From: Candidatus Nomurabacteria bacterium
GTDB lineage: Bacteria; Patescibacteriota; Minisyncoccia; Phycocordibacterales; UBA9973
Direction of reading: 5' to 3'
Assembly: GCA_026395915.1 (NCBI GenBank)
Contig: JAPLXU010000011.1
Coordinates: 15,688-79,687, forward strand
DNA length: 64,000 bases
How positions within the stretch are numbered: position 1 is the first letter of the stretch; every line of letters begins with the position of its first letter. Positions 2,525 to 41,169 of this stretch are shown one piece after another. The notes under the pieces were generated by a model. It was not told the DNA's origin, searched no databases, and worked only from the letters and a program-made list of their open reading frames with translations. The translations under genes and the position numbers were made by a program.

Positions 2525-3997
2525 TTATTTTAACAAATCTATTAAAATTTGCTTCGTCACTGCCGGATTCGCAGAACCTTTTGTTTCTTTCATTATTTGG
2601 CCAACGAGAGACATAAGCGCCTGCTCCTTGCCACCTTTATAATCCGCAACAACTTTCGCATTCGCCTCGATAATTTTCTGCGCGATTTGTTTGAGCTCGT
2701 TTGTGTCGTTACTTTGAAGCAGTTTTTTCTCTGTCGCGATTTTGAGCGGAGAACCGTCATCAATCACAATAATCGCTAAAATATCTTTGGCAGCGCGGGA
2801 AGAAATTTTATTTTCGGCAACCAAATTTACCAACTCAGAAAAATTATTCGCAGACGGAAGCCTTGCTTCCGTTTTTGCTTTTTTTAGTCCCATAAAATCT
2901 GAGGTTGTATAGTTCGAAGCTATTTTTATTTTTTCTTTGTCTCCCAAGATTTTTGCAACATTCTCGAACCAAGCGCCCAAGAGAGGATCATTTATATAGG
3001 CCTCTATATCTTCGTCTTTGATGCCGAAATCTTTTTTGTATCTAGCGCGCTTCCCCGCTGGCAACTCTGGCAATTCTTTTTTCATCTTTTCCAAATCAAA
3101 AGCTTCGTGCAGTCTTAATTTTGGCAAATCTGGCTCTGGAAAATATCTGTAATCAGCGCTCCCCTCTTTTTTCCTCTGAGAAAAAGTTTTTTGCTTATTT
3201 TCATCCCAGCCACGCGTTTCTTGAATTATCTCCGATTCTTTACCTTCTTCAAAGAGCTGTGCCATGCGATCGAGTTCGTATTTTATGGCTCGTTCGACGC
3301 TTCTAAACGAATTTAAATTTTTCACTTCTACTTTTGTGCCAAGTTTTTTCGGATCAGTTGAAACAGAAATATTCGCCTCAACTCGCATTTCACCCTTTTC
3401 CATATTCGCCTCGGACACGCCCAAATACCAAAGTATGAGCTGAAGCTCTTTTGCAAATCTTGACGCTTTTTCTGCAGCTTCGTCGGAACTTTCCAAAGTG
3501 TGCGGTTCGGTCACAAGCTCCATCAAAGGCACACCAGAACGGTTGAAATCAATCAGAGAATATCCGTCGTTTCGGGTGTTGGACACCTGAAATTCTGGGT
3601 GTCCAACACCCGAAACATGCTTATTGTTGGCCGTATCTTCCTCTAAGTGCACACGAGTTATATCCATTCCGGCTAAATTTCCGCCGGAAACTATCGGATA
3701 TTTGTATTGCGAAATCTGATAACCTTTAGGGATGTCCGGATAAAAATAATTCTTGCGATCAAACTCAGAAAAGTCGGCAATTTTGCCATTAATAGCCAAA
3801 CCAACTTTGATCACATTCTCTATCGCTTTTTTGTTTATAACCGGCAGAGCTCCTGGATGCGCCATACAAACCGGACAGACATTCACGTTCGGCTTTTCCT
3901 CGTCAGGATCGTTCTTGCAAGCGCAAAACATCTTTGTCTGTGTAGCCAATTCAGCATGTATTTCCAAACCAATTGTCGGATAATATTTTTTACTCAT
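2525..3997 (-). CDS. gatB: Asp-tRNA(Asn)/Glu-tRNA(Gln) amidotransferase subunit B
   Basis: 490 aa. GatB N-terminal motifs (YYPTIGLEIHAEL, CPVCMAHPGALP, RVHLEEDTA) and a C-terminal GatB/YqeY domain. It carries an in-frame palindromic insert at 3569-3616. Confidence 0.95.
   Translation of the reverse strand: MSKKYYPTIGLEIHAELATQTKMFCACKNDPDEEKPNVNVCPVCMAHPGALPVINKKAIENVIKVGLAINGKIADFSEFDRKNYFYPDIPKGYQISQYKYPIVSGGNLAGMDITRVHLEEDTANNKHVSGVGHPEFQVSNTRNDGYSLIDFNRSGVPLMELVTEPHTLESSDEAAEKASRFAKELQLILWYLGVSEANMEKGEMRVEANISVSTDPKKLGTKVEVKNLNSFRSVERAIKYELDRMAQLFEEGKESEIIQETRGWDENKQKTFSQRKKEGSADYRYFPEPDLPKLRLHEAFDLEKMKKELPELPAGKRARYKKDFGIKDEDIEAYINDPLLGAWFENVAKILGDKEKIKIASNYTTSDFMGLKKAKTEARLPSANNFSELVNLVAENKISSRAAKDILAIIVIDDGSPLKIATEKKLLQSNDTNELKQIAQKIIEANAKVVADYKGGKEQALMSLVGQIMKETKGSANPAVTKQILIDLLK
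3569..3616. repeat. Perfect 48-nt palindrome (20-bp arms, 8-10 nt loop) embedded in-frame in gatB
   Basis: cgtttcgggtgttggacacc-tgaaattc-tgggtgtccaacacccgaaacg. Encodes HVSGVGHPEFQVSNTRN, an extra loop relative to typical GatB between LEEDAGK and DGYSL. Confidence 0.8.
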
Positions 3998-5142: not shown

Positions 5143-6153
5143 CTATTTCTTCGTCAAAATTTTCACCAAAGCGTCGTTGAATTTCTTTACCATTTTATCA
5201 TCATAAAGAGATAATACAAAAACATTTTTGCTGATCTTTTTAAAATCAGCGGTTTTCTTGGCAATAATTTTTGGATCATCTACCACGTCGGCTTTTGTCA
5301 AAACAATTATTTCTTCTTTATTTGAAAGGCCGTCTTCGTTCAAACCCAACATCTTGTCATATTTTGCCAATTCTTTGCGGATTTCTTTGTAGCTTTTCAT
5401 CATTCCAGTCGAGCCTTTTGACAGATTTTCAAATGAAACCAAGTGCGCGAGCATTTTTGTGCGTTTGATATGACGCAAGAATTTCACCCCGAGCCCCTTG
5501 CCTTCGGATGCGCCTTCAATAACACCGGGAATGTCGGCAACAATAAAACCAAAAAAGTCTCCGAGATTCGGATCAAGCGTAGTGAAAGGATAATCGCCAA
5601 CTTTCGCATCAGCATTTGTGAGAGCATTCAGCAAGGAAGATTTCCCCGCATTCGGAAGTCCGATAAATCCGACATCGGCAAAAAGTTCTAATTCGATTTT
5701 AAAGTCTGCCTTTTCTCCAGCGCCCCCAATATTCGATTCTTGCGGAGTCGTATTTACCGAACTTTTAAAATGTTCGTTTCCATAACCTCCATACCCGCCT
5801 TTCAAAAGCAAAATTGTTTCTCCTTCGGATGCCAACTGCCATTTTTCGTCAGTGATAAGATTGGTAATGATAGAACCGACAGGCAACTCCAAAATAAGAT
5901 CCTCTCCGTTTTTCCCGTGCAAGCTTTTGCTTCCGCCATCTTCCCCCCTGCCCGCAATAAAATCTTTTTTCGCTTTATATTTCAAAAGTATGTGAACATC
6001 ACGGACAGCTTTCACATAAAAATTCCCACCACGTCCGGCATCTCCACCAGCGGGTCCGCCCTTCGGTTCGAACTTTTGCCTATGCCAGCGCACTACGCCG
6101 TTTCCTCCTTGTCCGGCTTCCGCATGTATTTTTATTTCATCAATGAATGCCAT
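5143..6153 (-). CDS. obg: GTPase Obg/CgtA
   Basis: 336 aa. Glycine-rich Obg fold N-terminus (GGNGVV, GGDGGRGG) plus G domain (GLPNAGKSSL, DIPGVIEGA, TKAD). Confidence 0.95.
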   Translation of the reverse strand: MAFIDEIKIHAEAGQGGNGVVRWHRQKFEPKGGPAGGDAGRGGNFYVKAVRDVHILLKYKAKKDFIAGRGEDGGSKSLHGKNGEDLILELPVGSIITNLITDEKWQLASEGETILLLKGGYGGYGNEHFKSSVNTTPQESNIGGAGEKADFKIELELFADVGFIGLPNAGKSSLLNALTNADAKVGDYPFTTLDPNLGDFFGFIVADIPGVIEGASEGKGLGVKFLRHIKRTKMLAHLVSFENLSKGSTGMMKSYKEIRKELAKYDKMLGLNEDGLSNKEEIIVLTKADVVDDPKIIAKKTADFKKISKNVFVLSLYDDKMVKKFNDALVKILTKK

Positions 6154-6277
6154 ATGTGTTTAATGTAAGTTATAAAATATAATTTTTCGTAGGGGTTTCG
6201 AGGCTGTCGAGCCGAGAACTTCAGGATTTTTTAAGCTTAAAAAAATCCGTACCAAAGAAAAATTGATATTTTATAGC

Positions 6278-7189
6278 TTACCCTAATATCGCTAATTTTG
6301 CTAATTTAATTGCCCCTTCTTTTGATTTCGCAACCGCAAGAAATAAGTTTTTATGACAGAAAACTGCATCTGAAACTCCAGTTATTTTTTGCAACTCGTC
6401 TGATTTTAATCCACCCCAAGATTTGGGAAAATCTTTTCTGTTTTTAAAAATTTTTAGATCTTCTCGAAGTGCCTTCACTGACCATTTATTCTTTATCATT
6501 CTACTCGGGCAAACGACAAAAAGTGGTTCTGGATAATCTTGCAATATACTTTCATATGGATAATGCTTATCTAAAATTATTACTCTTTTATCTTCTGTTT
6601 CTTTGTAAGTCAAAATTACTACTTCTTCAGCTAAAACTAGATCTCTGGCTTGGACTATTTCTCTAGACAAAATATCCTTTGCCATCTGCACACATTTTAA
6701 AAACATTTCATCATCTGTAACATTTTCTTCCCGCCAGGTTGGACTCATTGAATAAAAAAAATGTTGAATAGAATATGTAGAAACTTCATAAATATTTGTA
6801 ACTAAATCAAAACCGTTATCATGCGCATCAACAGGAGCTACTAATTTTTTATCTATTATTTCACTAGCTTTTCCTGATCCAGAAAGTTCTTCGCCAAACT
6901 TTTTCCAAATAAGACCAAAGGATGAGTATTCTATGTTGTTGTCTCTCTTGCCTGCCCCGCCCGGTTGATGATGATCAAATCTGTTTAACTTTTCGTCATA
7001 CACGCCACCGACATCAAAAACATAATCGGCGCCGGCTATTATCTCCTCGTCTCTTGTGCGAATTATTGTGAAAGGCTTGTTGTCTTTCTCAAGTAATAGA
7101 GACAATGTCGCGCAAGCAAATATATCATCCGCGTGAAACGAACCATCATGCGTAACTAATTTTAATTTTTTAGTCTTTTTCATTATCAT
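6278..7189 (-). CDS. MYG1/GAMM1 (UPF0160) family metal-dependent hydrolase
   Basis: THDGSFHADDIFACATL and DHHQ motifs. The start is set at the internal MIMKKTKK to avoid a long overlap with the upstream DedA gene. Confidence 0.8.
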   Translation of the reverse strand: MIMKKTKKLKLVTHDGSFHADDIFACATLSLLLEKDNKPFTIIRTRDEEIIAGADYVFDVGGVYDEKLNRFDHHQPGGAGKRDNNIEYSSFGLIWKKFGEELSGSGKASEIIDKKLVAPVDAHDNGFDLVTNIYEVSTYSIQHFFYSMSPTWREENVTDDEMFLKCVQMAKDILSREIVQARDLVLAEEVVILTYKETEDKRVIILDKHYPYESILQDYPEPLFVVCPSRMIKNKWSVKALREDLKIFKNRKDFPKSWGGLKSDELQKITGVSDAVFCHKNLFLAVAKSKEGAIKLAKLAILG

Positions 7190-7778
7190 AAAATTCTTCA
7201 AAAATCTCATAAACCCAACCGATAAACTTATCAAGGATAATATACAGTATAAACAGTCCAAGAACCACCATTGAAAATCTCCCTATTTTTTGGCTGACAT
7301 GCAAAGCAGTGAAGCTGAAAAAATAACCCAAAGACAAGAGGAGTGGCGCCCAAATTATCGTCGCTGAGATTTCCGCTTTTAGATATTTTTTGTAATCGAT
7401 TTTTTCAAAACCGCAAAAAACTATAACTACATGATTTATTCCCACCAAAAACTTCGAAATAAAAATTGACCAGAAAGGCTTCGCTTTGAATCTTGGCAAA
7501 ACGCTATACACTCTCCTTTGAATATACCTGAAAAATCTATGATGATTGTACTTTTTAAACAAAAATTCTCCTAAAGCGTAACCTAAAAAAGTTTTTGACA
7601 ACGCTCCCAGTAAGACGAAAATCAGAGCTATCCAAAAATTCAAAGCGCCTAGATGAGTTAGAATTCCGGTGGAAATTAAGAAAAATTCTCCTTCAACAAT
7701 CAGTCCTAAAAAAATCACCGCGTAAACCAAAACCTGATGGTGCTCTACTAACCCAATTAAAAGATTTACGGTGTGCAT
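7170..7778 (-). CDS. DedA/SNARE-associated (VTT domain) membrane protein
   Basis: 202 aa polytopic membrane protein with a DedA-like core (VIFLGLIVEGEFFLISTG...LGYALG). Confidence 0.75.
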   Translation of the reverse strand: MHTVNLLIGLVEHHQVLVYAVIFLGLIVEGEFFLISTGILTHLGALNFWIALIFVLLGALSKTFLGYALGEFLFKKYNHHRFFRYIQRRVYSVLPRFKAKPFWSIFISKFLVGINHVVIVFCGFEKIDYKKYLKAEISATIIWAPLLLSLGYFFSFTALHVSQKIGRFSMVVLGLFILYIILDKFIGWVYEIFEEFYDNEKD

Positions 7779-9129: not shown

Positions 9130-9245
9130 ATTACCACCTCGCTCTGACTAAAAAGTCAGAGCACTCCTCCTTATCAAGGAGGAGATTCCTAGAAACTCCC
9201 CTCCTTGTGGAGGAGGGGGTTGGGGGTGGTGATTATTTTTTGCAA
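9130..9245. repeat. Array of three G/C-rich hairpins plus T-tract (terminator of the exonuclease gene), containing direct repeat GGAGGGGGTTGGGGGTGGTGATT
   Basis: CTCTGACT-aaaa-AGTCAGAG, CTCCTCCTT-atc-AAGGAGGAG and CCCCTCC-ttgt-GGAGGAGGGG, followed by the G-run and T-tract. Confidence 0.7.
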
Positions 9246-9569
9246 AACTCCATCTATATTTGTATTTATTTCTGTATTAGTAAAACGTAAAACTTTTATG
9301 CTAAGACCTTCAAAAAATTTAGTACGTATCTCGTCATATTTCTGGCTATCTTTTGTAAAATGTTGAGAGCCATCAATTTCTATTGCTAATTTTTTTGTGG
9401 GACAATAAAAGTCTATAATATATCCTCCAATACTATGCTGGCGTCTAAACTTTAGACCTATCTGAGAATTTTTCAGTTTCAACCACAATAAAATTTCTTG
9501 AGGCGTGCTATTGTTTCTTAATTCTTTTCTTCTTGGAAACAATTTTTTGATATTGTTGATTGTTTTCAT
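9189..9569 (-). CDS. DUF559 (Vsr-like) endonuclease domain protein
   Basis: Internal start MKTINNIKK. DUF559 motifs (TPQEILLWLKL, IDFYCP..LAIEIDGSQH, R..FLE-like tail). The ORF-track N-terminal extension is only translation of the G-rich hairpins. Confidence 0.75.
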   Translation of the reverse strand: MKTINNIKKLFPRRKELRNNSTPQEILLWLKLKNSQIGLKFRRQHSIGGYIIDFYCPTKKLAIEIDGSQHFTKDSQKYDEIRTKFFEGLSIKVLRFTNTEINTNIDGVLQKIITTPNPLLHKEGSF

Positions 9570-9574
9570 TGTCT

Positions 9575-9690
9575 TACCCCCCTCCTTAGTTAAGGAGGGG
9601 GCTGGGGGTGGTAATTCCGAATTCGGATCACCACCCCGCCCTTCAGGCACCCCTCCTTTCACAAGGAGGGGTTGTTCATTTAAGCATAAT
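9575..9690. repeat. Second hairpin array upstream of the DUF559 gene, containing direct repeat GGAGGGGGCTGGGGGTGGTAATT
   Basis: CCCCCTCCTT-agtt-AAGGAGGGGG, GGGGTGGTaaTTCCGAATTCGGAtcACCACCCC and CCCCTCCTT-tcac-AAGGAGGGG. Confidence 0.7.
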
Positions 9691-20485: not shown

Positions 20486-21385
20486 CTATAAGCGGGATAA
20501 AATCCTCAACTTCGCGCTTCTCGATCTCGGATTATTTTTAATTTCTTCTGCTTTCGCTATGATCGGTTTTTTGTTTACTAATTTTGCTAAATTTTCTTCG
20601 GCTAATTTTTTATAAAATCTTTTCACTATTCTGTCTTCCAAACTATGGAAAGAAATTACCGACATCCTCCCGCCAACTTTTAACGATTCGAATCCTTTCT
20701 CGAGTCCCTCGGAAAGCGCTCCTAATTCATCGTTGACCGCTATCCTTATCGCTTGAAAAGTTTTTGTGGCAAAGTGTATTTTCCATTTTCGAAACTTTGC
20801 CGGAATTGCGTCCTCTATTATTTTTACCAAGTCGAAAGTGGTTTCAATCTTTTTCTCTTTCCTAAAATCCACTATCGCTTTGGCTATCCTGCGAGCTTGC
20901 TTTTCCTCGCCGTAACCGTAAATAATATCTGCTAAACTCTTCTCCTCCCAGGTGTTCACGACATCTAGCGCCGTGACATCTTCTGGAAGAGGATTTTCTT
21001 TCATAGTCATGGAGAGTGGTTCATCTCTCATGAAAGAAAATCCTCGTCCAGAATTCTCTAATTGATCCGAACTCAAACCTAAATCAAAAATAATTCCGTC
21101 AACTTTTCCGACACCTTCCTTTCCCAAAACCTTATCTATATTCCTGAAATTTTCATTTGCGAAAGAAATGTCGCAATCCAAATCCTTGAACTTCTCTTTT
21201 GCTTTTTCGAAAGCACCTTGGTCTTGATCGAGGGCAATAATTTTCACATCCGGAAATCTTTTGCAAATTTCTAGACTGTGTCCCCCTCCGCCAAATGTGC
21301 AATCAATCACCAAAGATTTTGGTTTTAAATCGAGACCCTCTATTGTTTCTTGTAAAAGAACTGTCTTGTGTGCGCTTGTCATCAT
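20486..21385 (-). CDS. rsmH: 16S rRNA (cytosine1402-N4)-methyltransferase RsmH (MraW)
   Basis: 299 aa. HKTVLL, DCTFGGGGHS and ALDQD motifs. Confidence 0.95.
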   Translation of the reverse strand: MMTSAHKTVLLQETIEGLDLKPKSLVIDCTFGGGGHSLEICKRFPDVKIIALDQDQGAFEKAKEKFKDLDCDISFANENFRNIDKVLGKEGVGKVDGIIFDLGLSSDQLENSGRGFSFMRDEPLSMTMKENPLPEDVTALDVVNTWEEKSLADIIYGYGEEKQARRIAKAIVDFRKEKKIETTFDLVKIIEDAIPAKFRKWKIHFATKTFQAIRIAVNDELGALSEGLEKGFESLKVGGRMSVISFHSLEDRIVKRFYKKLAEENLAKLVNKKPIIAKAEEIKNNPRSRSAKLRILSRL

Positions 21386-25990: not shown

Positions 25991-25991
25991 G

Positions 25992-26017: not shown

Positions 26018-26030
26018 CTATACTTGAGTT

Positions 26031-26678
26031 ATGTCATTAAGAAAAACCAATTTTGTAGAAGGTGAATATTATCATATCTACAATAGAGGCGTTGATAAGC
26101 GAGAAATTTTTTCCGATAAATTTGACTTAGAAAGATTCTTACAAAGTATGGAAAGTTTCAATACTAAGGATCCTATCGGGAGTTTATATGAAAATAGTTT
26201 TATAAAAAAGAAAGCACTTGGAGGCAAAGCCTCCAAATTGGTTAATTTTGTGGCTTATTGTTTGAACCCTAATCATTATCATTTTATTATTACTCCCCTC
26301 GTAGAAAAAGGAATCGAAAAATTCATGCAACGACTTGGAACAGGCTATACCATGTACTTCAATGAGAAAAATAAAAGATCTGGTTCGCTTTTTCAAGGGA
26401 AATTTAAAAGTAAACACTTAAATTCAAATGAATATTTACTTCAAGCAAGCTCCTATGTAAATTTAAACAACTATGATAAAAATGGGGTAATCAAAAAATC
26501 TTTAAACTCGTCAAGTTGGATTGAATATACTCAACCAACTAATAATGTTGAGTTTTGTGAAAAATCGATAGTGCTTGGTCAATTTGAATCCAAAAAAGAA
26601 TATGAAAAATTCGCACTGGAAACTTGGAGAAATACATGCGAAAGAAAAGAAGAAATAGAAAATCTTGAATTTATTTAA
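26031..26678 (+). CDS. IS200/IS605-like Y1 transposase, REP-associated tyrosine transposase (RAYT)-like
   Basis: 215 aa. YHIYNRGVDKREIF and NPNHYHFII (HuH) motifs. Associated with three REP-like hairpins, one of them inside its own CDS. Confidence 0.7.
   Translation: MSLRKTNFVEGEYYHIYNRGVDKREIFSDKFDLERFLQSMESFNTKDPIGSLYENSFIKKKALGGKASKLVNFVAYCLNPNHYHFIITPLVEKGIEKFMQRLGTGYTMYFNEKNKRSGSLFQGKFKSKHLNSNEYLLQASSYVNLNNYDKNGVIKKSLNSSSWIEYTQPTNNVEFCEKSIVLGQFESKKEYEKFALETWRNTCERKEEIENLEFI
26215..26238. repeat. REP-like hairpin, copy 2 (inverted orientation), in-frame inside the RAYT CDS
   Basis: cacTTGGAGGCaaaGCCTCCAAattg encodes ALGGKASKL. Confidence 0.7.
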
Positions 26679-29970: not shown

Positions 29971-30420
29971 TTGATGGAGGATTTTTTTATGAAAAAACGA
30001 CAAAGAAAATTACATATCAATCTTTCCATTTCCATATTTTTCGTTATTTTACTTTTTTTAATTTTTTATTTAGTTCAAACCACCTATTCCATACCAAAAA
30101 TCGGAACGCCCATAGTTAATCAAGAAGCGAGCAAAGATGATAACACTGCCACTATTTTAATTGGTAATTCTAAAACTAATCTATTATTTTCTGTTGGTAC
30201 ATCTCTTTATAACGCTCTAACACAACAAAAAAATGCTGGAAAAATAACGTTTTCCGGAAAAAACTACCCTAGCTTAGGCTTTTTTGTGACAGATATAGGT
30301 ACACTTCACGCAAACAATGGAAAAAATCTTATTTATTATATTAATGGGAAAGAAGCATCTGTCGGCGTTTCTTCCTACATGCTCAAAGATGGAGACATCA
30401 TTGAGTGGAAATTAGAGTAG
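29971..30420 (+). CDS. DUF4430 (transcobalamin beta-domain-like) protein, membrane-anchored or secreted
   Basis: N-terminal TM/signal. The C-terminal about 90 aa match the DUF4430 pattern (TFSGKNYPSLGFFVTDIG...YYINGKEASVGVSSYMLKDGDIIEWK). Confidence 0.7.
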   Translation: MMEDFFMKKRQRKLHINLSISIFFVILLFLIFYLVQTTYSIPKIGTPIVNQEASKDDNTATILIGNSKTNLLFSVGTSLYNALTQQKNAGKITFSGKNYPSLGFFVTDIGTLHANNGKNLIYYINGKEASVGVSSYMLKDGDIIEWKLE

Positions 30421-30428
30421 TTTTATTT

Positions 30429-33041
30429 ATGAAAAAAATACTTAGTTTCGGGTTTCTGTTTGTGTTAGCTTTTGGTTTTGGAAGCTTTACAAATTTATAT
30501 GCAGAGAATGATACAACTCCGCCGATAGGAACAATATTAATAAATGGTGGAGCATTATACACAAATACTCGAAATGTAATACTGACTCTTTCTGCAACAG
30601 ACGATCTTTCTGCCGTTACTGAAATGAAAATTGCGAACTATACTTCTTATCATGATCTAGAACCATATGTAACATCAAAAAACTGGGAACTAACCAACGG
30701 AGACGGATTAAAAACTGTGAGGGTTAAATTTAAAGACCAGGCAGGAAATGAAACTGCCACCGGAATTTCTGCAACCATAACCTTAGACACTATTGCCCCA
30801 GTTATAAATTTAACTGGTCTAAGCACTATCAATTTAAATGTTGGTGGTACTTATACAGAACTCGGAGCAACAGTAATTGATGCAGATACTTCTGTTTCTA
30901 TTATAATCACCGGTCCAGTTGACACAACAACTGCTGGAACTTATACAATTCGTTACAATGCTTCTGACACAGCAGGAAATAAAGCAACAGAAGTTACTAG
31001 AACGATTAATGTCACTGCAATGCCGACACCAGTTCCAATCCATCTTGATATTGAAGCATCTGACGGTCCAATCTATAATCAAGATATTACAGTGGCTCCT
31101 TGCAATAGTGATGGCAATGGAATTATGAAAATAACTGCATATTGCGCGCTTGCACAATCTAACATTCCAAGCATTTGGTCTGGACTATGGATTGATTCAA
31201 TTGGTGGAAAAGTGAACAATGATAATAACAATGGAGCATTCTGGATGTGGCTTGTAAATCTAAATATAAATAATCCTTATTCTGATTCTATATGCCACCA
31301 AGATTCTCCTTTTAGTTGTTCAGCCAAAGAATATATTTTAAATCCGAACGAAAAAATATTATTTTACTACAACACAAATCCCTTAAAAATCTCTGACATC
31401 AATCTTAACCCTGCTGTTGGAAGTAACATCACGATAAGCGTAAAAAAACTGGGTTTAGACGGCTGGAATTCAGTTTGGAATCCCGCAGTTGGCGGAAAAA
31501 TTGTTATAGGAACAAATACTTTTGATCTTGACGACAATGGCTCATACACTTTCACAATTCTCAATACAGATGCGTTTACAATAAAAGGTCAATTGACTGG
31601 TTTCATTGACACACCTCAAATAATAGTCACTCCGACTACTTCTCCTGACACTACTCCTCCCGTTATTTCCATTAACGGTATCAGCCCCATAGATGTCATA
31701 AAAGACACAGTTTATACAGACGCCGGGGCGACAGCAAATGATGCAGTAGATGGTGTACGTACAGTCACCACAACAGGCAATGTCGATGCGACAATTATCG
31801 GCACATATACAATAACTTATACTGCAAGTGATACCTCAAACAATGTTTCAACACTGATGCGCACAGTAAATGTTATAAATCCGCAAGGCAATAGTGGCAG
31901 TATGGCAACAGGCGGGGGTGGAATATATGTAACACCAACTTTCAATATTCAAAATGCCCTAGCTTATCTGAAAGGCGTCCAGAGTTCGGACGGATCTTTC
32001 GGCGGTTCACTTATGTACACAGATTGGGTGGCAATCGCTTTCGGAGCTTCGAGCATCACTGACAGTTCACGCGACAAGATTCTCGCATACTTCAGCTCCA
32101 ACAACACATTAAGTTCCCTTCTAACTGACAATGAGAGACACACTATGGCGCTCCTCGCGCTCGGACAAAATCCATATTCTTTCAACGGCATAAATTATAT
32201 AGGCGCAATCATAAGCAGTTTTGACGGCGTACAATTCGGTGACGCAAATCTTATTAATGACGACGTTTTCGCTCTCATTCCTCTCGCAAATTCTGGCTAC
32301 ACCGCAAACGATGACATTATTGCAAAAGACGTTGCTTTTATAATTTCAAAACAAAAAACCGACGGCTCATGGGAAGAAAGCGTTGACATCACATCGGCAA
32401 CGGTACAAGCTCTGAAGCCTTTTTCTTCGATTGCTAACGTTCCAAGCGCGCTCACGAAAGCCACCGATTATCTCACAAACAAACAAAATAACGATGGTGG
32501 TTTTGGTGATAATAATTTGAGTTCCGTTTATTCGACAAGCTGGGCAATGCAAGAAATGAACGCCCTTTCCGCGTCTTGGACAAAAGGCGGACATACACCT
32601 ATGGATTATTTCGGCGGAAAGCAAGCACTAGATGGCGCAATTCTCCCCTTCTCTGAAATTCCGCAGAATAGAATTTGGGCAACCAGTTATGCGATTCCGG
32701 CTGTTCTCAATAAACCTTGGAGCGCGATTATGCAAAATGTTTCCAAGCCGGGAGTTCAAAATAACGCGAGCACTTCCGTAAACTCAGAACTAGTAGTAGT
32801 TCCAGCACCTGAGACTGTAAAAAAAATAGACACAACTCCAAAAACTAAAATACTAACAGAGGCAGTCTCACAAGATGTAGCGACAGAACCAAATACATCA
32901 GAAATAAATTCTGACACACTAGGAGCGACAGCGGTCAATGCCTTGCCGTCAAAAACTTCCAGCAACGCAATTCCAATAGCTTTAGGTGTCGGCCTTGGTA
33001 TTGCCTTCCTCTACTTCGCCGCAAAAAATATAGCTAAATAA
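30429..33041 (+). CDS. Large cell-surface protein: signal peptide, two DUF5011/Ig-like domains, C-terminal terpenoid-cyclase/prenyltransferase-like alpha-alpha toroid repeats, C-terminal TM anchor
   Basis: Signal peptide MKKILSFGFLFVLAFG. Two TIAPVI/TPPVI...GTYTI.Y.ASDT.GN...R.V.V repeats (DUF5011). Repeated QxxDGSW/GGFG toroid repeats. Ends GVGLGIAFLYFAAKNIAK. Confidence 0.75.
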   Translation: MKKILSFGFLFVLAFGFGSFTNLYAENDTTPPIGTILINGGALYTNTRNVILTLSATDDLSAVTEMKIANYTSYHDLEPYVTSKNWELTNGDGLKTVRVKFKDQAGNETATGISATITLDTIAPVINLTGLSTINLNVGGTYTELGATVIDADTSVSIIITGPVDTTTAGTYTIRYNASDTAGNKATEVTRTINVTAMPTPVPIHLDIEASDGPIYNQDITVAPCNSDGNGIMKITAYCALAQSNIPSIWSGLWIDSIGGKVNNDNNNGAFWMWLVNLNINNPYSDSICHQDSPFSCSAKEYILNPNEKILFYYNTNPLKISDINLNPAVGSNITISVKKLGLDGWNSVWNPAVGGKIVIGTNTFDLDDNGSYTFTILNTDAFTIKGQLTGFIDTPQIIVTPTTSPDTTPPVISINGISPIDVIKDTVYTDAGATANDAVDGVRTVTTTGNVDATIIGTYTITYTASDTSNNVSTLMRTVNVINPQGNSGSMATGGGGIYVTPTFNIQNALAYLKGVQSSDGSFGGSLMYTDWVAIAFGASSITDSSRDKILAYFSSNNTLSSLLTDNERHTMALLALGQNPYSFNGINYIGAIISSFDGVQFGDANLINDDVFALIPLANSGYTANDDIIAKDVAFIISKQKTDGSWEESVDITSATVQALKPFSSIANVPSALTKATDYLTNKQNNDGGFGDNNLSSVYSTSWAMQEMNALSASWTKGGHTPMDYFGGKQALDGAILPFSEIPQNRIWATSYAIPAVLNKPWSAIMQNVSKPGVQNNASTSVNSELVVVPAPETVKKIDTTPKTKILTEAVSQDVATEPNTSEINSDTLGATAVNALPSKTSSNAIPIALGVGLGIAFLYFAAKNIAK

Positions 33042-33182: not shown

Positions 33183-33187
33183 ACGAA

Positions 33188-33271
33188 GGCGGAGGGTACA
33201 GGACTTGAACCTGTAAGGGATTTCTCCCGCTGGTTTTCGAAACCAGTGCCATACCATTAGGCGAACCCTCC
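33188..33271 (-). tRNA. tRNA-Ser (anticodon CGA)
   Basis: GGAGGGT/ACCCTCC acceptor, 3-bp D stem, anticodon loop TTCGAAA, long variable arm, T-arm ACAGG-TTCAAGT-CCTGT. CCA only partly encoded. Confidence 0.75.
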
Positions 33272-36480: not shown

Positions 36481-36552
36481 GCGCGCTTAGCTCAGTGGTA
36501 GAGCGACTTTTTGACGTAAAGTAGGCCGGGGGTTCAATCCCCTCAGCGCGCA
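36481..36552 (+). tRNA. tRNA-Val (anticodon GAC)
   Basis: GCGCGCT/AGCGCGC acceptor, D-arm GCTC-AGTGGTA-GAGC, anticodon loop TTGACGT, T-arm GGGGG-TTCAATC-CCCTC. tsaD begins 2 nt downstream. Confidence 0.8.
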
Positions 36553-36553
36553 C

Positions 36554-37732
36554 ATGAAAATCCTTTCGATCGAAACGTCTTGCGACGATACAGGCATCAG
36601 TATAATGGAAGCAAAAAGAAGCGTCACAGGCGCTTCTTTTCGAGTGTTGGCAAATAATTCAAATTCGCAAATAAATGTCCATATCCCCTACGGAGGAGTC
36701 TATCCTGTGCTTGCTAAACGAGAACACAAAAAAAACTTACCGACCGTTCTCGAAGCAAGTCTGAAAGAAGCGAAGTTAGATAAAGAAAAGAAACCTGTAG
36801 ACGCTATAGCTGTCACTTATGGCCCGGGCTTGGAAATGTGCCTTTGGGAAGGTATCACTTTTGCAAAAGAATTAGCCGAAAAATGGAAAGTGCCTTTGAT
36901 ACCTGTGAATCACATGGAGGGACATATTTTTTCGGTATTTGGAAAAAATAAGGGAAAATTCTCAATACCAAAAATAAAATTTCCAGCTTTATCGCTTTTG
37001 GTTTCTGGTGGACACACGCAACTGGTGCTCATGAAAAAGTTGATGGATTACGAAATAATCGGTGAAACTTTAGACGACGCAGTCGGCGAAGCTTTTGATA
37101 AGGTCGCGAGAATGCTCGAACTCCCCTATCCCGGCGGACCGCAAATCTCAAAATTAGCAGAGGGGTGCAGAGTTAAAGAAAAACAATCTTTGCGGGGTGT
37201 CTCGCAGGCCGACGGGCCGAGAGGCAGCGCTGGGTCAGCAGACCCAGACAGCGACCCCGAAAAGATTAGTTTTTCTTTCACTCTGCCAAGACCCATGCTT
37301 CATAGCAAAGATTTCAATTTCTCTTATGCAGGATTGAAAACCGCGGTGCTTTATTTGATTCGCGATTTGCAAAAAAAAGATTCAAACATTTTACAAAATG
37401 ATAAAATAAAAAAAGCCATAGCATTGGAATTCGAAAACGCCGCAATTGAGTGTCTTGTCAAAAAGACACGAAAGGCCGTAGAAAAATATGGCATAAAAAC
37501 TCTCATCGTGGCTGGTGGGGTGGCATGCAATACGCATCTGCAAAGAGAAATGTCCGCCATAAACGAATCCGCCCCTCGAGGAAAAAAAATCAAAATCTTT
37601 TTTCCGCCGAAAGGTCTCTCGGGAGATAATTCAATAATGATAGGCATAGCAGGATACTTGAATTACATAAAAAATAAGAAAAAAGTCCCGAAACCAAACA
37701 GCATAAAAGCCGTCGGCAACCTGAGACTTTGA
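36554..37732 (+). CDS. tsaD: tRNA N6-adenosine threonylcarbamoyltransferase TsaD
   Basis: MKILSIETSCDDTG, HMEGH and GGVACN motifs. It carries a roughly 30-aa GC-rich in-frame insert (37193-37259). Confidence 0.9.
   Translation: MKILSIETSCDDTGISIMEAKRSVTGASFRVLANNSNSQINVHIPYGGVYPVLAKREHKKNLPTVLEASLKEAKLDKEKKPVDAIAVTYGPGLEMCLWEGITFAKELAEKWKVPLIPVNHMEGHIFSVFGKNKGKFSIPKIKFPALSLLVSGGHTQLVLMKKLMDYEIIGETLDDAVGEAFDKVARMLELPYPGGPQISKLAEGCRVKEKQSLRGVSQADGPRGSAGSADPDSDPEKISFSFTLPRPMLHSKDFNFSYAGLKTAVLYLIRDLQKKDSNILQNDKIKKAIALEFENAAIECLVKKTRKAVEKYGIKTLIVAGGVACNTHLQREMSAINESAPRGKKIKIFFPPKGLSGDNSIMIGIAGYLNYIKNKKKVPKPNSIKAVGNLRL
37193..37259. repeat. GC-rich multi-hairpin palindromic element inserted in-frame in tsaD
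   Basis: CGGGGT-[TCTCG..GGCC-gacg-GGCC..CGAGA]-[CTGGGTC-agca-GACCCAG]-ACCCCG. About 65% GC against a background of about 36%. Encodes SLRGVSQADGPRGSAGSADPDSDP. Confidence 0.75.
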
Positions 37733-38934: not shown

Positions 38935-41169
38935 ATGGATTCCAAACTGCCTGAGAAGCTACTTAAACCTTTTAACCCAAAAGAAACCGAAGAAAGAATA
39001 TACAAGCTATGGGAAGATAGCGGTTTTTTTGCGCCTGAAGTACACCCTACTTGGGTGGATGATTCTTCCTTAAACGAGAATTTTGGGAAACCTTTTACTT
39101 TGATAATGCCACCAACAAATGCCAACGGGTCTCTCCATGCTGGGCATGGCTTGGTCATGACTATCGAAGACATAATGGTGCGTTATAAGAGAATGCGAGG
39201 CTTCAAAACGCTTTGGCTCCCGGGATTGGATCATGCCGGTTTCGAGACGCAGGTGGTGTATGAAAAAAAACTGGAAAAAGAAGGACGAACGAGATTTGAA
39301 ATTGAACCCAAAAAACTGTATGAAGAAATTCTTGATTTCACTCTAACTAATTCAAAAAACATAAAATCTCAAGTTAGAAAAATGGGGGCGTCTTGCGATT
39401 GGTCTCGTGAGAAATTCACGTTGGATCCCGACATTGTGAAAATTGTTTATCAAACATTCAAAAAATTGTCCGACGACAATTTGGTGTACAGAGGAAACAG
39501 AATCGTGAGCTGGTGCTCGAAACATCAAACCTCTTTTTCTGATTTAGAAATACTAGACGAAGAACGAATAGATAATTTTTATTATTTGAAATATGGACCG
39601 TTTGTAATAGGCACTTCACGACCGGAAACAAAATTTGGCGACAAATACGTCGTGATGAATCCAAATGATGAAAGATATAAAGACTACAAAGATGGCCAAA
39701 AAATAAAGCTGGAATGGATAAATGGCCCGATAGAAGCCACTATCGTGAAGGACGAGGCAGTAGATATGGAATTTGGCACGGGCGTAATGACCATCACGCC
39801 TTGGCATGACACCGCGGACTTTGAAATCGCTGAAAGACACAAACTTGATAAAGAACAGATCATCGACGAGAATGGAAAATTGCTTCCTATCGCAGGAGAA
39901 TTTGCTGGACAGCATATCAAAAAAGCCAGAGCCTTGATCATAGAAAAACTGCAGAAAAAAGGTTTGGTGGAAAAAATTAATGAAAAATATAAACATGTCG
40001 TGAGGACATGTTACAAATGTGGGACAGTGATAGAACCGCAAATAAAAAATCAATGGTTTGTAAAAATGAAACCCTTAGCAGAGAAAGCTTTGGAAAAAAT
40101 AAATAACGGAGAAATAAAATACATCCCTGATCATTACAAAAAAGTTAGCATTCACTGGCTCTCGAATATTATGGATTGGAATATTTCCAGACAAATAGTC
40201 TGGGGCATACCGATACCGGCAAAAATTTGCGTAAAATGTGGAGCCGGCATGGTAGATCTAGATAATAAAATAAAAAAATGCGCTTCTTGTGGTGGTGAAG
40301 TCGCGCAAGACAAGGACACTTTTGATACTTGGTTCTCTTCCGGCCAATGGCCTTTTGCCACACTTGGCTATCCGGATGGAAAGGATTTTAAAACATTTTA
40401 TCCGACAGACGTCATGGAAACAGCCGGAGAAATTATATTTTTCTGGGTATCTAGAATGATAATGCTTGGCTTGTATGTTACCGGAGAAATTCCATTCAAA
40501 AATGTGTATCTGCATGGTTTGGTTTTAGACGCCAAGGGTCTCAAAATGAGCAAAAGCAAAGGAAACGTTATTGATCCGTTGATACTTACAGGAAAATATG
40601 GCACAGACGCATTTAGAATAGGTATGGTGATTGGCAACACTCCGGGCACTTCGCTGGCTCTTGCGGAAGAAAGGATCCGCGGTTATGGAAAATTTGCCAA
40701 CAAAATCTGGAATGCCACAAGATTCGTGCTTGATAATACAAAAGACTTCAACAATAGTAACACTGAAATAAAATATGATGAAGAAGATAAAAAATCAGAT
40801 GAAGAATTAAAAAAACTAGTAGAAGAAATAACAAAAGAGATGGACGAATATAAGTTCTACATCGTGGCGGAAAAAATCTACCATTATTTTTGGCATACTT
40901 TTGCGGACATCATTATTGAGCGATCAAAAAAGAAAATTCTAGAAAACAAAAATGCAGACTCGGCAAAAGCACTTGTTTATTCACAACTCGTCACCCTTCT
41001 CAAGGTTCTCCATCCTTTTATGCCTTTTGTTACGGAAGAAATTTGGCAAATATTATTACCCCGACGTAAAGTCGGGGAGCCGACTGAAATGTCGGCTTTA
41101 ATGGTTGAAAAATGGCCTGCCCGCAATGCTTCCAGCATAGCTGATGCAGGCGGGCCCGAATCCAAATGA
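38935..41169 (+). CDS. valS: Valine--tRNA ligase
   Basis: 744 aa. HAGHG (HIGH) and KMSKS present, CP1 editing domain, Zn-knuckle cysteines. No C-terminal coiled coil. Carries the PARNASSIADAGG element near its C-terminus. Confidence 0.95.
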   Translation: MDSKLPEKLLKPFNPKETEERIYKLWEDSGFFAPEVHPTWVDDSSLNENFGKPFTLIMPPTNANGSLHAGHGLVMTIEDIMVRYKRMRGFKTLWLPGLDHAGFETQVVYEKKLEKEGRTRFEIEPKKLYEEILDFTLTNSKNIKSQVRKMGASCDWSREKFTLDPDIVKIVYQTFKKLSDDNLVYRGNRIVSWCSKHQTSFSDLEILDEERIDNFYYLKYGPFVIGTSRPETKFGDKYVVMNPNDERYKDYKDGQKIKLEWINGPIEATIVKDEAVDMEFGTGVMTITPWHDTADFEIAERHKLDKEQIIDENGKLLPIAGEFAGQHIKKARALIIEKLQKKGLVEKINEKYKHVVRTCYKCGTVIEPQIKNQWFVKMKPLAEKALEKINNGEIKYIPDHYKKVSIHWLSNIMDWNISRQIVWGIPIPAKICVKCGAGMVDLDNKIKKCASCGGEVAQDKDTFDTWFSSGQWPFATLGYPDGKDFKTFYPTDVMETAGEIIFFWVSRMIMLGLYVTGEIPFKNVYLHGLVLDAKGLKMSKSKGNVIDPLILTGKYGTDAFRIGMVIGNTPGTSLALAEERIRGYGKFANKIWNATRFVLDNTKDFNNSNTEIKYDEEDKKSDEELKKLVEEITKEMDEYKFYIVAEKIYHYFWHTFADIIIERSKKKILENKNADSAKALVYSQLVTLLKVLHPFMPFVTEEIWQILLPRRKVGEPTEMSALMVEKWPARNASSIADAGGPESK
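41116..41153. repeat. In-frame palindromic element, copy 2 (in valS), identical 38/38 to copy 1
   Basis: cctgcccgcaatgcttccagcatagctgatgcaggcgg, encoding PARNASSIADAGG. Confidence 0.85.

Follow-up and report, generated by a model that had tools for sequence, protein, structure and literature searches.

A palindromic element in the tsaD gene of a Patescibacteria genome probably belongs to an RPE-like, protein-coding repeat family

Patescibacteria (CPR) have small and streamlined genomes, in which mobile DNA is considered scarce. Among the short palindromic elements, the families RPE-1 to RPE-10 were reportedly described by Ogata et al. in 2000 and 2002, and coding palindromes of Wolbachia are said to be related to them; RPE copies are described as old and are recognised largely by their peptides, and the activity of R. 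conorii guanylate kinase was reportedly compared with and without its insert. REP repeats form short hairpins, presumably processed in the form of folded single strands by a HUH/Y1 transposase whose gene is flanked by cognate hairpins, and the hairpins of REPINs reach a length of about 100 nt. PATEs, which derive from IS200/IS605, carry two subterminal hairpins on one strand, have a strand-specific single-strand biology and do not need terminal inverted repeats. Finally, the byps of Magnusiomyces capitatus mitochondria and the yeast mitochondrial GC clusters are GC-rich palindromic insertions in AT-rich protein-coding genes.

RPEs are stem-loops of 105-146 bp that either lie between genes or are fused in frame to conserved ones (PMC2229807, PMC10969869). 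Bacterial MITEs (Correia/NEMIS, ERIC, RUP, BOX) are non-autonomous, shorter than 200 bp, possess inverted termini and give transcripts with stable stem-loops; they are occasionally fused in frame with genes (PMC2229807). REPs are extragenic sequences of 20-40 nt, with a high copy number and GTAG or CGTC at one end (PMC3733652). In the literature searched, we found no description of RPE-like elements in CPR, Patescibacteria or Parcubacteria. Here, we analyzed a hairpin located in the tsaD gene of a 64-kb stretch of Candidatus Nomurabacteria DNA, hereafter called the window. We propose that this hairpin is probably a copy of an RPE-like, protein-coding palindromic repeat family of Patescibacteria, that is, a non-autonomous element of about 120 nt termed F1.

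The tsaD hairpin and the loop it encodes

A sequence-only reading of the window had drawn attention to a GC-rich palindromic segment of 67 nt in tsaD. The three inverted repeats it reported (CGGGGT/ACCCCG, GGCC-GACG-GGCC and CTGGGTC-AGCA-GACCCAG) all lie where it had placed them, and a sliding-window calculation of the kind it had suggested gave 37193-37259 as the 67-nt window with the highest GC content of the whole 64 kb. The GC contrast is real, but its figures had to be revised, to 74.6% instead of about 65% for the segment and to 42% instead of about 36% for the gene (41% without the hairpin). As for the palindrome, it is present far beyond chance, but its size was underestimated: the segment is the core of a larger hairpin of 120 nt (37167-37286; inverted repeats I1 and I2), in which AT-rich arms lengthen the palindrome. 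This element lies in frame between the LAEG and LPRPM motifs, where it takes up the entire variable linker.

The RNA minimum free energy of the 151-nt context is -78.6 kcal/mol (z = -10.3), a stability reached by none of 200 shuffles, and the 96 nt around the segment fold at -49.2 kcal/mol (z = -6.4). In a fold scan, the tsaD hairpin came out as the most stable 130-nt window of the 64-kb sequence. Its overall shape is that of an outer stem of about 30 bp enclosing a three-way junction (Table 1). In hairpin P2, an apical stem of 4 bp carries a conserved NNCG loop, and one U.G pair is invariant; the apex of P3 is made of a variable 5-bp stem (GGGTC/GACCC in the window copy) closed by a conserved AGCA loop. 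Searching Rfam 15 with the window and five related loci returned tRNAs only at the gathering threshold; at E <= 10, the best match in region 37100-37350 scored 15 bits versus a cut-off of 80, and no Rfam ribozyme or intron matched the element. With its 40 codons, the element is below intein size.

Table 1. Location of the F1 copies of the window and of the parts of the tsaD element
Feature	Position	Strand	Description
tsaD (tRNA t6A37 threonylcarbamoyltransferase subunit), host gene	36554..37732	+	ORF, 392 aa
Complete palindromic element, family F1 subtype A	37167..37286	+	120-nt hairpin with three-way junction; codes for residues 205-244, approximately
Outer stem P1, 5' arm	37169..37198	+	Sequence copy-specific apart from inner TTNCGGGGT
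Outer stem P1, 3' arm	37254..37284	+	Enters the Leu-Pro codons of the conserved LPRPM motif
Conserved 59-nt core	37197..37255	+	GTGTCTCGCAGGCCGACGGGCCGAGAGGCAGCGCT-N5-AGCA-N5-AGACAGCGAC; 71% GC; essentially the GC-rich segment of the sequence-only reading
Hairpin P2	37199..37225	+	GTCTC-GCA-GGCC-GACG-GGCC-GA-GAGGC
Hairpin P3	37227..37252	+	Invariant lower stem, two bulged A
Second F1 copy, other subtype	6164..6280	+	Intergenic; own AT-rich outer stem of about 28 bp

In NCBI, the product of the host gene has a 100% match that is annotated as TsaD and carries PF00814, and TsaD homologues from the PDB match it with E values of 1e-67 to 1e-63. These solved structures align to residues 1-203 of the query, then from about residues 233-242 onward. 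The position at the domain boundary is constant, and the linker measures 1-6 residues in the solved TsaDs versus about 38 in the query, in agreement with the in-frame Gly/Ser/Asp/Pro-rich loop announced by the sequence-only reading. Its proposal to check loop exposure on a model was also followed: AlphaFold gave residues 210-239 as disordered, with pLDDT below 50 and no secondary structure, the remaining protein being well modelled. According to this model, the insert adds to the TsaD inter-domain linker a disordered loop of roughly 28-38 residues, rich in Gly, Ser, Asp, Pro and Arg, and the encoded peptide would lie at the protein surface in a manner compatible with the fold. Predicted tryptic peptides spanning the insert include ...GVSQADGPR / GSAGSADPDSDPEK...

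The reading frame is open through the linker in 81 out of 81 tsaD genes. Linkers of at least 30 aa are found in 48 of them, 40 of these 48 being strongly structured, and the short linkers (<= 16 aa) are unstructured (median z = 0.1). A short and unstructured linker is taken as the ancestral state, a point in support of the RPE-like reading. The frame is also kept in every F1 copy located inside a gene, including six other host genes, and this conservation suggests that the insert is translated.

Conservation, dispersal and turnover of family F1

Every F1 copy is composed of a sequence-conserved core of about 60 nt, which forms the three-way junction, and of an outer stem of about 28-30 bp that is paired but varies from copy to copy. 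MAFFT and RNAalifold applied to mixed subtypes found no helix other than the 4-bp stem of P2, P3 being put out of register by indels, and were replaced by gap-free subtype-A and covariance-model alignments, which established the structure together with its covariation. In the 26 gap-free copies of subtype A, taken from different genes and genomes, 91.4% of the cells are paired and 31 of the 47 pairs have changed on both sides; none of 500 shuffles was as good, and slid controls reached 41-48%. The covariance-model alignment of 30 copies from all subtypes gave 93.7% of pairing, with double changes in 44 of 47 pairs. Both sides have changed in 25 of the 28 pairs of the outer stem (helix 1) across the 26 copies, and the outer arms are near-perfect in almost all F1 copies. 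The apical stem of P3 exists in at least 10 distinct sequences, every one of them paired.

In the core, 40 columns are invariant among the 26 copies, and the P2 motif CAGG..(GACG)..CCGAG is invariant or almost so in all subtypes. Unpaired nucleotides, the U.G pair and the two bulged A are kept without change across genomes of 31-58% GC. Because the core is 91-95% identical between genomes when the flanking tsaD third codon positions are 50-52% identical, the F1 core in tsaD does not appear to be a decaying relic, which also supports the RPE-like reading. This conservation operates at the level of nucleotides and structure, not of the peptide. Compensatory changes in the stem rewrite the latter (GSAGSADPDSD, GSAPRARGDSD, GSAVRARTDSD). 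A peptide shared by many TsaDs had been named in advance as evidence against a foreign element, and superficially there is one, GVSQADGPRGSA..DSDPEKI being recurrent in many Parcubacteria TsaDs. The idea nevertheless survives because other TsaDs read the reverse orientation of the same DNA, as GSLSPRARGALPL, because compensatory stem substitutions alter the peptide, and because nearly identical TsaDs carry unrelated cassettes.

By nhmmer and a pattern scan of a genome collection, at least 126 F1 copies were listed in 1.48 Mb of sequence, in a census biased by the choice of 80 loci for tsaD and by the restriction of the genome scan to a pattern, the copies being the matches listed. Among these listed copies, 35 lie in the tsaD linker, to which L012a and L034 should be added although they were tallied under other ORFs; about 14 are in frame in ORFs different from tsaD, and 75 in intergenic DNA or short ORFs. 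The genes that host F1 in frame are tsaD, tgt, fmt, uvrB, uvrD, recG and an aminotransferase gene (Aminotran_5); besides TsaD, Pfam confirmed the host proteins as TGT, Formyl_trans, UvrD, RecG, UvrB and Aminotran_5. Subtype A, to which the tsaD copy of the window belongs, is found in uvrB (L152), uvrD (L112, L165, L168), tgt (L086) and intergenic DNA, and in L042 an F1 copy occupies a second site within tsaD. Several MAGs possess F1 copies on different contigs. The tsaD linker of many Parcubacteria contains the core, the listed copies being in the same orientation in 26 cases and in the opposite one in 9, and one uvrD site was found with F1 in both orientations. The claim of a foreign in-frame element is supported by this occurrence of the core beyond tsaD, within genes or between them, and in either direction. 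Judging from these matches, F1 is dispersed in Patescibacteria, mainly in Parcubacteria/Paceibacteria, and is most often intergenic. Its copy number is low and its locations are scattered.

The window itself contains two F1 copies. With the covariance model, the tsaD element scored 130.6 bits (E = 2e-31) and the intergenic copy, whose fold was computed, 54.5 bits (E = 1e-11; nhmmer E = 3e-4); the core of the latter is near-identical to that of L007 at 405-521. At other loci, the copies measure 107-122 nt, the total length being constant at about 116-122 nt (about 118 nt). The 18-mer CTGGGTCAGCAGACCCAG, proposed earlier as a probe for further copies, occurs only once in the window, as expected since it comes from the apical stem, which varies among family members.

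The tsaD linker looks like a hot spot, since in other genomes this site is taken by hairpin families unrelated to F1. The peptides encoded there are of at least six unrelated types, in addition to the reverse-complement reading. A family named F2 is found in the linker of L029 and L036 (75-80% identical to 9578-9669 of the window), other hairpins belong to an SGPRF-type family and to a AAGGTCGGACCT hairpin family, and simple palindromes devoid of the core are present in L059, L026 and L063. A TsaD and its nearest neighbour share their cassette type in only 33% of cases, versus 24% by chance. P0008 and P0064, whose TsaDs are 97% identical outside the linker, contain different elements inside it, and their DNA is 100% identical except in the hairpin, the last 25 nt or so upstream of it and the first 70 nt or so downstream. 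Cassettes are rapidly replaced between nearly identical tsaD alleles, via mosaic tracts resembling those of recombination, and part of the turnover is explained by homologous recombination between tsaD alleles, not by transposition. We considered the "empty" sites of the close relatives P0095, P0098 and P0115 as pre-insertion sites; remnants of the outer stem (AAAGAAAAAC...TTTTTCTTT) persist there and secondary deletions are more likely. The comparison of L020 with L013 is compatible with in-situ inversion as well as with re-insertion, the genes being only about 78-80% identical in DNA.

Spread of F1 and competing explanations

We propose that F1 is a selfish element, not useful to its host, that would move or have moved as a folded single strand, the + strand folding better than the - strand. 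Copies would survive and get translated where they have landed in frame and the housekeeping protein tolerates them in a surface loop, and the arms could stay paired through selection on the hairpin or through arm-to-arm correction. One could also imagine that F1 is mobilised in trans, by a HUH/Y1 (RAYT/IS200-like) transposase specific for hairpins and similar to the one encoded at 26031..26678 in the window. The + strand folds more stably in 116 of the 126 listed F1 copies (G.U pairs, 269 versus 142), in a test where related copies count as independent. The Y1_Tnp/RAYT-like gene of the window (PF01797, 29.5 bits versus a cut-off of 23) is flanked by its own hairpins, as are the similar genes of L133 and L177. 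However, the hairpins adjoining these three genes are other sequences than F1, so that the link between F1 and a Y1 transposase is circumstantial. The enrichment of F1 near RAYT-like genes, at 2 of about 60 loci, is indistinguishable from chance.

No transposition event, cognate autonomous element or parent IS was identified for F1. The flanks of 28 F1 copies revealed no general target-site duplication, and only the copies of one GC-richer sub-lineage (L110, L126, L134, L140, L172, L173) are bordered by direct repeats, with the sequence GCGAG. DUF559 was examined as a mobiliser, F2 flanking the DUF559 gene of the window, and was rejected on a comparison of two genes in total, the second one having no flanking F2. 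The viral contigs provided no evidence for a phage vector: the sole match to the F1 pattern in them lies in a 65% GC contig lacking the F1 architecture and is thus attributed to chance.

The conserved core at orthologous tsaD sites and the near-perfect arms are unlike a purely neutral dead insertion, and would also fit a selected function. On this basis, one may tentatively consider, without making it our first choice, that F1 is not mere junk and represents a new class of hairpin-borne mobile element, a domesticated nucleic-acid signal, or both. As a mobile element, F1 would use its three-way-junction core as the recognition module of a single-strand-specific enzyme, leaving the arms of about 30 bp free, and would imply an undescribed chemistry of transposition or insertion. 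As a signal, it would be selected inside essential genes, and the tsaD linker would be dual-coding, its DNA or RNA structure being more constrained than the protein. What leaves room for these two possibilities is that the core is conserved above synonymous sites, the length constant at about 118 nt and the arms near-perfect.

A rather improbable explanation is that F1 is a module selected by the host, each copy being maintained by selection and the core being an RNA or single-stranded DNA site where a conserved cellular factor binds or acts in processing; the stem could then be an RNase III substrate, an mRNA stabiliser, a pause site or a recombination/replication signal. A core 91-95% identical next to saturated synonymous sites argues for it, as do the unpaired nucleotides, U.G pair and bulged A that stay invariant whatever the GC content between 31 and 58%, the constant total length with arms that are near-perfect almost throughout, the better folding of the + strand, and an outer stem that forms in the mRNA in either orientation of the element. 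However, closely related tsaD genes lack the element or have unrelated hairpins at the same place, so that tsaD needs no particular core. The copies are also few, scattered and in either orientation relative to the host gene, and no Rfam family matches them. As for the conservation, it could equally come from young copies, from allele exchange or from the propagation needs of the element itself.

We regard as very unlikely that the insert is an untranslated intervening sequence, either excised (for instance by RNase III cuts followed by ligation) or bypassed by the ribosome. A long perfect stem is a formidable obstacle for ribosomes and a textbook RNase III substrate, and the present one has roughly 30 bp and -78 kcal/mol. 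Moreover, bypassing has precedents in the Magnusiomyces byp hairpins and in gene 60 of phage T4, and a GC-rich hairpin in an AT-rich gene is reminiscent of byps. However, without translation about two thirds of the inserts would be out of frame, whereas the 48 linkers of at least 30 aa, from all families and both orientations, keep the frame and have no stops (48/48), as do the copies in the six other host genes.

That the palindrome was made locally, by template switching or inverted duplication of the linker, its resemblance to other copies being convergent, is a highly improbable alternative. This genome does produce palindromes from native sequence, as illustrated by rsmH (20981-21053), where the codons of the conserved GRGFSFM motif recur, inverted, as the right arm, and the core-less palindromes in the tsaD linker of L059, L026 and L063 point in the same direction. 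Nevertheless, the sequence of the 59-nt core recurs almost to the base in copies from other genes and genomes, which convergence cannot explain; a local origin is refuted for the core, but local duplication may contribute to the arms. Finally, there is next to no chance that the insert is a lineage-specific functional extension of TsaD (such as a CPR partner-binding segment) under protein-level selection, with an incidental hairpin, as the recurrence of GVSQADGPRGSA..DSDPEKI in Parcubacteria and the constant domain-boundary position might suggest: this is already contradicted by the six or more unrelated peptide types and the reverse-complement reading at this site, by compensatory stem changes that rewrite the peptide, by the same DNA in other proteins and non-coding DNA, by the disorder of the modelled loop, and by a nucleotide conservation that is not codon-like.

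Structured palindromic elements that colonise essential genes would alter the picture of Patescibacteria/CPR as poor in mobile DNA, and elements of the F1 type could account for many odd low-complexity inserts in CPR proteins. For annotation, inserts and length variation in TsaD, Tgt, Fmt, UvrB and UvrD may thus be nucleic-acid-driven and not adaptive protein features. The hypervariable tsaD cassette could serve as a strain marker and as a natural experiment on recombination in uncultured populations. The conserved core with free arms offers a substrate for testing the movers of hairpin elements, for which RAYT-like Y1 transposases are candidates, and the tsaD mRNA would be a test case for the ribosome and RNase III facing a 30-bp stem in an essential mRNA.

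F1 and the known palindromic repeats

With byps, F1 shares the insertion of a GC-rich palindrome inside an AT-rich protein-coding gene; byps, however, break the frame and are bypassed by the ribosome, whereas F1 copies always keep it. The hairpins P2 and P3 and the strand asymmetry fit PATEs loosely, but PATEs have no long enclosing stem and insert beside a fixed tetra- or pentanucleotide, and no fixed target of this type was found for F1. In MITEs, the terminal inverted repeats are conserved in the family and match those of an IS, and the target is usually duplicated (TA or another sequence). In contrast, the F1 termini are variable (25 of 28 pairs vary on both sides), its centre is conserved and it lacks a general target duplication.

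The resemblance to REP/REPIN-RAYT systems lies in the hairpin repeats and in the hairpin-flanked HUH/Y1 gene that the window has in common with two related loci. F1 differs by its low copy number, its often intragenic location and its branched core, as well as by the fact that the hairpins at RAYT-like genes are not F1. The terminal tetranucleotide of REPs (GTAG/CGTC) is absent, the F1 ends being variable; the complement of CGTC, GACG, is conserved but belongs to the loop of P2.

The closest likeness is with RPEs. Like these, F1 is a long stem-loop in the range of 105-150 bp, with intergenic copies and copies in frame in housekeeping genes of a reduced genome, the insert, presumably translated, being tolerated at the protein surface, and with no known transposase (PMC2229807, PMC10969869). 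It presents the features of the RPE kind, namely a stem-loop of about 100-150 bp, both intergenic and genic copies, in-frame insertion in unrelated housekeeping genes and a peptide predicted at the protein surface. On the other hand, the core of F1 forms a three-way junction whose loop and bulge nucleotides are invariant, and is better conserved than the neighbouring synonymous sites, while the arms of roughly 30 bp are copy-specific but paired; F1 occurs in both orientations at one site, and several unrelated families share the same hot spot. As it comes from a different phylum and the comparison is one of kind, not of sequence, F1 is not filed as a member of RPE-1 to RPE-10. By analogy, F1 would be the counterpart of RPEs in behaviour, from a new phylum and structurally more elaborate.

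The tsaD insert

From sequence alone, a GC-rich multi-hairpin insertion of about 67 nt had been claimed at 37193-37259, inside tsaD, with about 65% GC in a gene of about 36%. The three nested inverted repeats are indeed all present there and the contrast holds with other figures: the segment has 74.6% GC, against 42% for tsaD and 38.6% for the window, and a sliding analysis ranks it above every other 67-nt stretch of the window. Its limits had been drawn too narrowly, AT-rich inverted repeats (arms GCAGAGTTAAAGAAAAACAATCTTTGCGGGGT and ACCCCGAAAAGATTAGTTTTTCTTTCACTCTGC) extending outward as far as 37167 and 37286. A 151-nt context folds as a single hairpin containing a three-way junction, at -78.6 kcal/mol (z = -10.3) for the + strand and -74.0 kcal/mol for the - strand; no other 130-nt window of the 64 kb is as stable. 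The complete element is in frame with tsaD and codes for about residues 205-244. In 36481-36554, a tRNA-Val (GAC) gene ends at 36553 and the tsaD ATG begins at 36554, which leaves no spacer beyond the tRNA gene for a ribosome-binding site; a tRNA gene likewise lies upstream of the tsaD match in the metagenomic loci L007 and L067, and in L028 it ends (4927-4999) just before a match starting at 5001.

The alignment with solved TsaD structures covers query residues 1-203 and resumes at about 233-242, with 1-6 residues between. In the AlphaFold model (42 homologues, mean pLDDT 78.7), residues 210-239 follow a helix (194-208) and have no secondary structure. Because of this alignment gap and of a pLDDT below 50 over the same residues, the insert is predicted to be a disordered loop where the two halves of the fold meet, tolerated as such with the frame preserved.

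Hairpin elements and associated genes of the window
Feature	Position	Strand	Description
gatB-like palindrome	3569-3616		ORF 2525..3997 (-); perfect 19 bp, 10-nt loop, in frame
Second F1 copy, different subtype	6164-6280	+	in the spacer, with ORFs 5143..6153 and 6278..7261 on either side; separate AT-rich outer stem of ~28 bp
Intergenic element of F1-like architecture	8236-8382	-	AT-rich ~27-bp outer stem around two inner hairpins; -54 kcal/mol, z = -7
Two F2 multi-hairpin elements	9115-9250 and 9571-9700		flank and reach into the ends of DUF559 endonuclease-like ORF 9189..9662 (-)
rsmH/mraW-like inverted repeat	20981-21053		ORF 20486..21385 (-); 24-nt arms, 96% complementary
Y1_Tnp (IS200-like)/RAYT-like transposase homologue	26031..26678	+	PF01797 29.5 bits, above cut-off; weak REP-associated tyrosine transposase match
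CTTGCGAAAAC-like repeat run, nested hairpins	33060-33200		downstream of ORF 30405..33041; includes 20-bp inverted repeat 33093-33140
tsaD	36554..37732	+	392-codon ORF; identical to NCBI MAG protein named TsaD
F1 hairpin in tsaD (subtype A)	37167-37286	+	120 nt; inverted repeats and fold
valS-like 3' end	41041-41170		ORF 38935..41169 (+); last ~34 codons (PRRKVGEPTEMSALMVEKWPARNASSIADAGGPE) are three consecutive hairpins

A dispersed hairpin family

The 120 best TsaD homologues range from 359 to 440 aa, and alignment places this variation in the linker that holds the insert. Across 80 metagenomic tsaD loci and the window, strong structure (z < -4) was found in 1 of 19 linkers of at most 16 aa (median z 0.1, median dG -3.6 kcal/mol), 6 of 14 linkers of 17-29 aa (-3.5; -12.7 kcal/mol), all six being simple perfect palindromes, and 40 of 48 linkers of at least 30 aa (-5.9; -52.5 kcal/mol). 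Distant relatives have short linkers without structure, a state that looks ancestral. The long linkers encode several peptide types unrelated at the protein level, and many have a common DNA architecture, with an outer stem enclosing the inner hairpins P2 (consensus CAGG-NN-GACG-NN-CCGAG) and P3 (AGCA loop). Certain types are reverse-complement readings of others: GSLSPRARGALPL... is the reverse of ...GSAPRARGDSD, and GRNFSAEKF..SSGRRPAES of the ..RRPTGR..SKNSAEF type. Exactly the same site is occupied in L029 and L036 by hairpins of a second, unrelated family, F2 (CCCCTCCTT/AAGGAGGGG); an SGPRF-type family, in both orientations, and a AAGGTCGGACCT family are also found there.

A profile built from 25 copies of the ~120-nt family, F1, retrieved matches beyond the linker: in frame elsewhere in tsaD (L042), in DNA without coding function (L077), beside tRNA genes (L017, L028, L067), and in the window itself at 6164-6280. 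This second copy of the window has a core near-identical to that of L007 405-521, upstream of an FAD-oxidoreductase-like start. Scanning 185,579 species-representative genomes for GCAGGCYNNCGRGCCGAG-N12-20-AGCA matched at least 118 stretches; among those listed, the AT-rich ones belong to Nomura-, Kaiser-, Zambryski- and Harrisonbacteria, Paceibacterota, Minisyncoccia and similar MAGs, the remainder being chance matches from high-GC genomes. The 1.48 Mb examined, a sample skewed to tsaD loci and to one sequence pattern, hold 126 copies, which are phylogenetically related and not independent events: 35 lie in tsaD linkers by script (2 more, L012a and L034, were counted under other ORFs), about 14 in frame within other long ORFs, and 75 in intergenic DNA or short ORFs. 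Pfam identifies the host proteins as Tgt, Fmt, UvrD, RecG, UvrB and a class-V aminotransferase. Judged from flanking protein sequence, Tgt and Fmt each have one insertion site shared by two genomes, and a single UvrD site is used in three genomes, with copies of either orientation. Subtype A itself recurs in uvrB, uvrD, tgt and intergenic DNA. On these sequence comparisons, F1 is a dispersed family rather than a tsaD feature, and the foreign in-frame element suggested by the sequence-only reading finds support in the same core occurring in other genes, intergenic DNA and other genomes.

A second insertion hot spot of TsaD lies after LLEKVLK and before the (V/L)D(A/L)IAVT(Y/S)GPG motif; it holds an in-frame F1 copy in L042 (3214-3327) and a AAGGTCGGACCT-type hairpin in L058 (~2892-2940). 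The latter family also occurs in frame in an aminotransferase gene of L154 (peptide RSDLKNLERSDLG).

Alignment of 26 subtype-A copies (A2) is gapless across 118 nt. Columns 31-89, the core (37197-37255 in the window), are near-invariant, with a U.G pair that never changes and two bulged A. In P3, at least 10 different sequences fill the five apical pairs, every one complementary, and the 28-bp outer stem is completely different between copies, yet paired. In A2, 91.4% of cells are paired and 31 of 47 pairs changed on both sides (slid controls 41-48%); in A4 (30 copies, all subtypes), an alignment itself fitted to the model's structure, the values are 93.7% and 44 of 47 (slid controls 37-56%). 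None of 500 shuffles did as well in either. Total hairpin length is 116-122 nt in tsaD, uvrB, uvrD and one intergenic copy, which suggests that the arms are part of the unit and not accidental extensions. Compensatory changes alter the peptide, GSAGSADPDSD in the window vs GSAPRARGDSD, GSAVRARTDSD and GSAGLASPDSD elsewhere; as far as sequences tell, the conserved property is pairing, not protein.

A direct repeat, (A)GCGAG(Y)/CGAGCG, flanks the hairpin on both sides in GC-richer Patescibacteria (L110, L126, L134, L140, L172, L173) and was not seen around AT-rich copies. In this sub-lineage it could represent either a favoured target that becomes duplicated or one more motif at the ends of the element.

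Conservation, turnover and competing readings

In 14 tsaD loci with subtype A, the 60 linker-flanking codons, among the most conserved of TsaD, have 50-52% identical third positions, and the F1 core is 91% identical (95% without the apical P3 stem). F1, by this comparison, is not a decaying relic, its core being conserved beyond neutral expectation. When TsaD neighbours are judged without the linker, the nearest one shares the cassette type in 33% of cases vs 24% by permutation. P0008 and P0064, 97% identical outside the linker, carry subtype A and a different subtype with separate arms; their genes are 100% identical in DNA over hundreds of bases, diverge from ~25 nt before to ~70 nt after the hairpin, and show further mosaic blocks elsewhere. 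This pattern points to allele exchange via homologous recombination, the codons for the conserved PYPGGP and LPRPM...FSGLKTA stretches being the probable homology arms. The loci of these two proteins (L203 and L204), from two assemblies, have kilobases of 100% identical DNA; what interrupts them are short, strongly diverging stretches, namely the linker of tsaD, an indel of 21 nt close to the 3' end of that gene, and parts of valS. Such a mosaic is typical of frequent homologous exchange in a population or of a strain-mixed assembly. P0095, P0098 and P0115, close relatives that keep outer-stem remnants without the core, look like secondary deletions. The tsaD linker is a hot spot common to several hairpin families, where cassettes are replaced often and quickly.

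A host-selected RNA or DNA signal is a less probable explanation. The conserved core, the unvarying length and the perfection of the arms agree with it; against it, the element is dispensable and interchangeable at the tsaD site, and it occurs in either orientation. A purely local origin of the palindrome is contradicted for the core, which is near-identical to copies in other genes. Conservation of the insert as protein in many unrelated TsaDs had been named by the sequence-only reading as the finding that would speak against it. A ..DSDPEKI peptide does recur in many Parcubacteria TsaDs, which resembles such conservation only on the surface: peptides vary by compensatory change, the DNA also occurs in reverse readings, and nearly identical TsaDs carry unrelated cassettes. 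The reverse readings and peptide changes, the disorder of the loop and the copies that lie in non-coding DNA contradict a protein-level function of the loop. Removal from mRNA or ribosomal bypass is contradicted by the frame being kept, without stop codons, in 48/48 long linkers and in other hosts; F1 inserts within genes are evidently translated.

Other hairpins, mobilisation and known systems

The F2 elements of the window combine CCCCTCCTT-loop-AAGGAGGGG with GGGGGTGGT...ACCACCCC, and the more upstream of the two shows 75-80% identity with the L029/L036 linker inserts; in the few loci compared, a general DUF559-F2 association is unsupported. In the rsmH-like repeat, one arm together with the loop codes for GRGFSFMRDEPLSM, a conserved native motif. 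The right arm (MKENPLPE) repeats the codons of the conserved GRGFSFM motif in inverted form and takes the place of a variable segment. The palindrome is derived from native coding sequence, and it suggests template-switch or inverted-duplication mutagenesis in this genome. The gatB-like palindrome encodes VSGVGHPEFQVSNTRN, an apparent 14-16-residue insertion between the conserved HLEED...H and DGYSL(I/V)DFNR motifs, and a half-copy of its arm is present in L007. The last valS-like hairpin is similar to a portion of an F1 subtype in reverse orientation (GAAGCATTGCGGGCAGGCC), and this C-terminal tail may be built of hairpin elements. The element at 8236-8382 has a core different from that of F1 (weak covariance-model match, 24.8 bits), and the run at 33060-33200 could act as a terminator or belong to a further repeat family.

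We infer from sequence the translation and the mobility of F1 and any function it may have, and propose that it is a selfish and non-autonomous element, comparable in kind to the Rickettsia palindromic elements (RPEs). Two results hint at a single-stranded intermediate, possibly handled by an HUH/Y1 enzyme. The F1 + strand folds better than its complement in 116/126 copies (269 vs 142 G.U pairs), which is only suggestive of single-strand handling because the copies are related. The Y1_Tnp/RAYT-like ORF is preceded by a REP-like hairpin (CACTTGGAGGC-TTT-GCCTCCAAGTG, 25988-26019) and interrupted in frame by a second one (26213-26244; peptide KALGGKASKLVN), and its homologues in L133 and L177 have their own palindromes on their flanks. 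None of these hairpins is F1, so a link between F1 and this protein, whose enzyme class is a candidate for the movement of hairpin elements, counts as a lead only. The perfection of the arms could come from selection on pairing, arm-to-arm correction or young age.

F1 matches no Rfam family, and we found no description of such elements in full-text searches for CPR, Patescibacteria and Parcubacteria, whose incomplete coverage makes this absence of evidence only. Unlike MITEs, F1 has no family-wide terminal repeats. A target duplication is not general among its copies. Unlike REPs, it has no terminal GTAG or CGTC tag. RPEs, stem-loops of 105-146 bp, occur between genes and also as in-frame fusions within conserved ones (PMC2229807, PMC10969869). 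F1 resembles them in behaviour, a likeness of kind rather than of established descent, and we class it among the protein-coding palindromic repeats, here in a phylum new to them. It is set apart by a conserved three-way-junction core, copy-specific arms, occurrence in both orientations, a hot spot that several families share within an essential gene, and conservation above that of synonymous sites.
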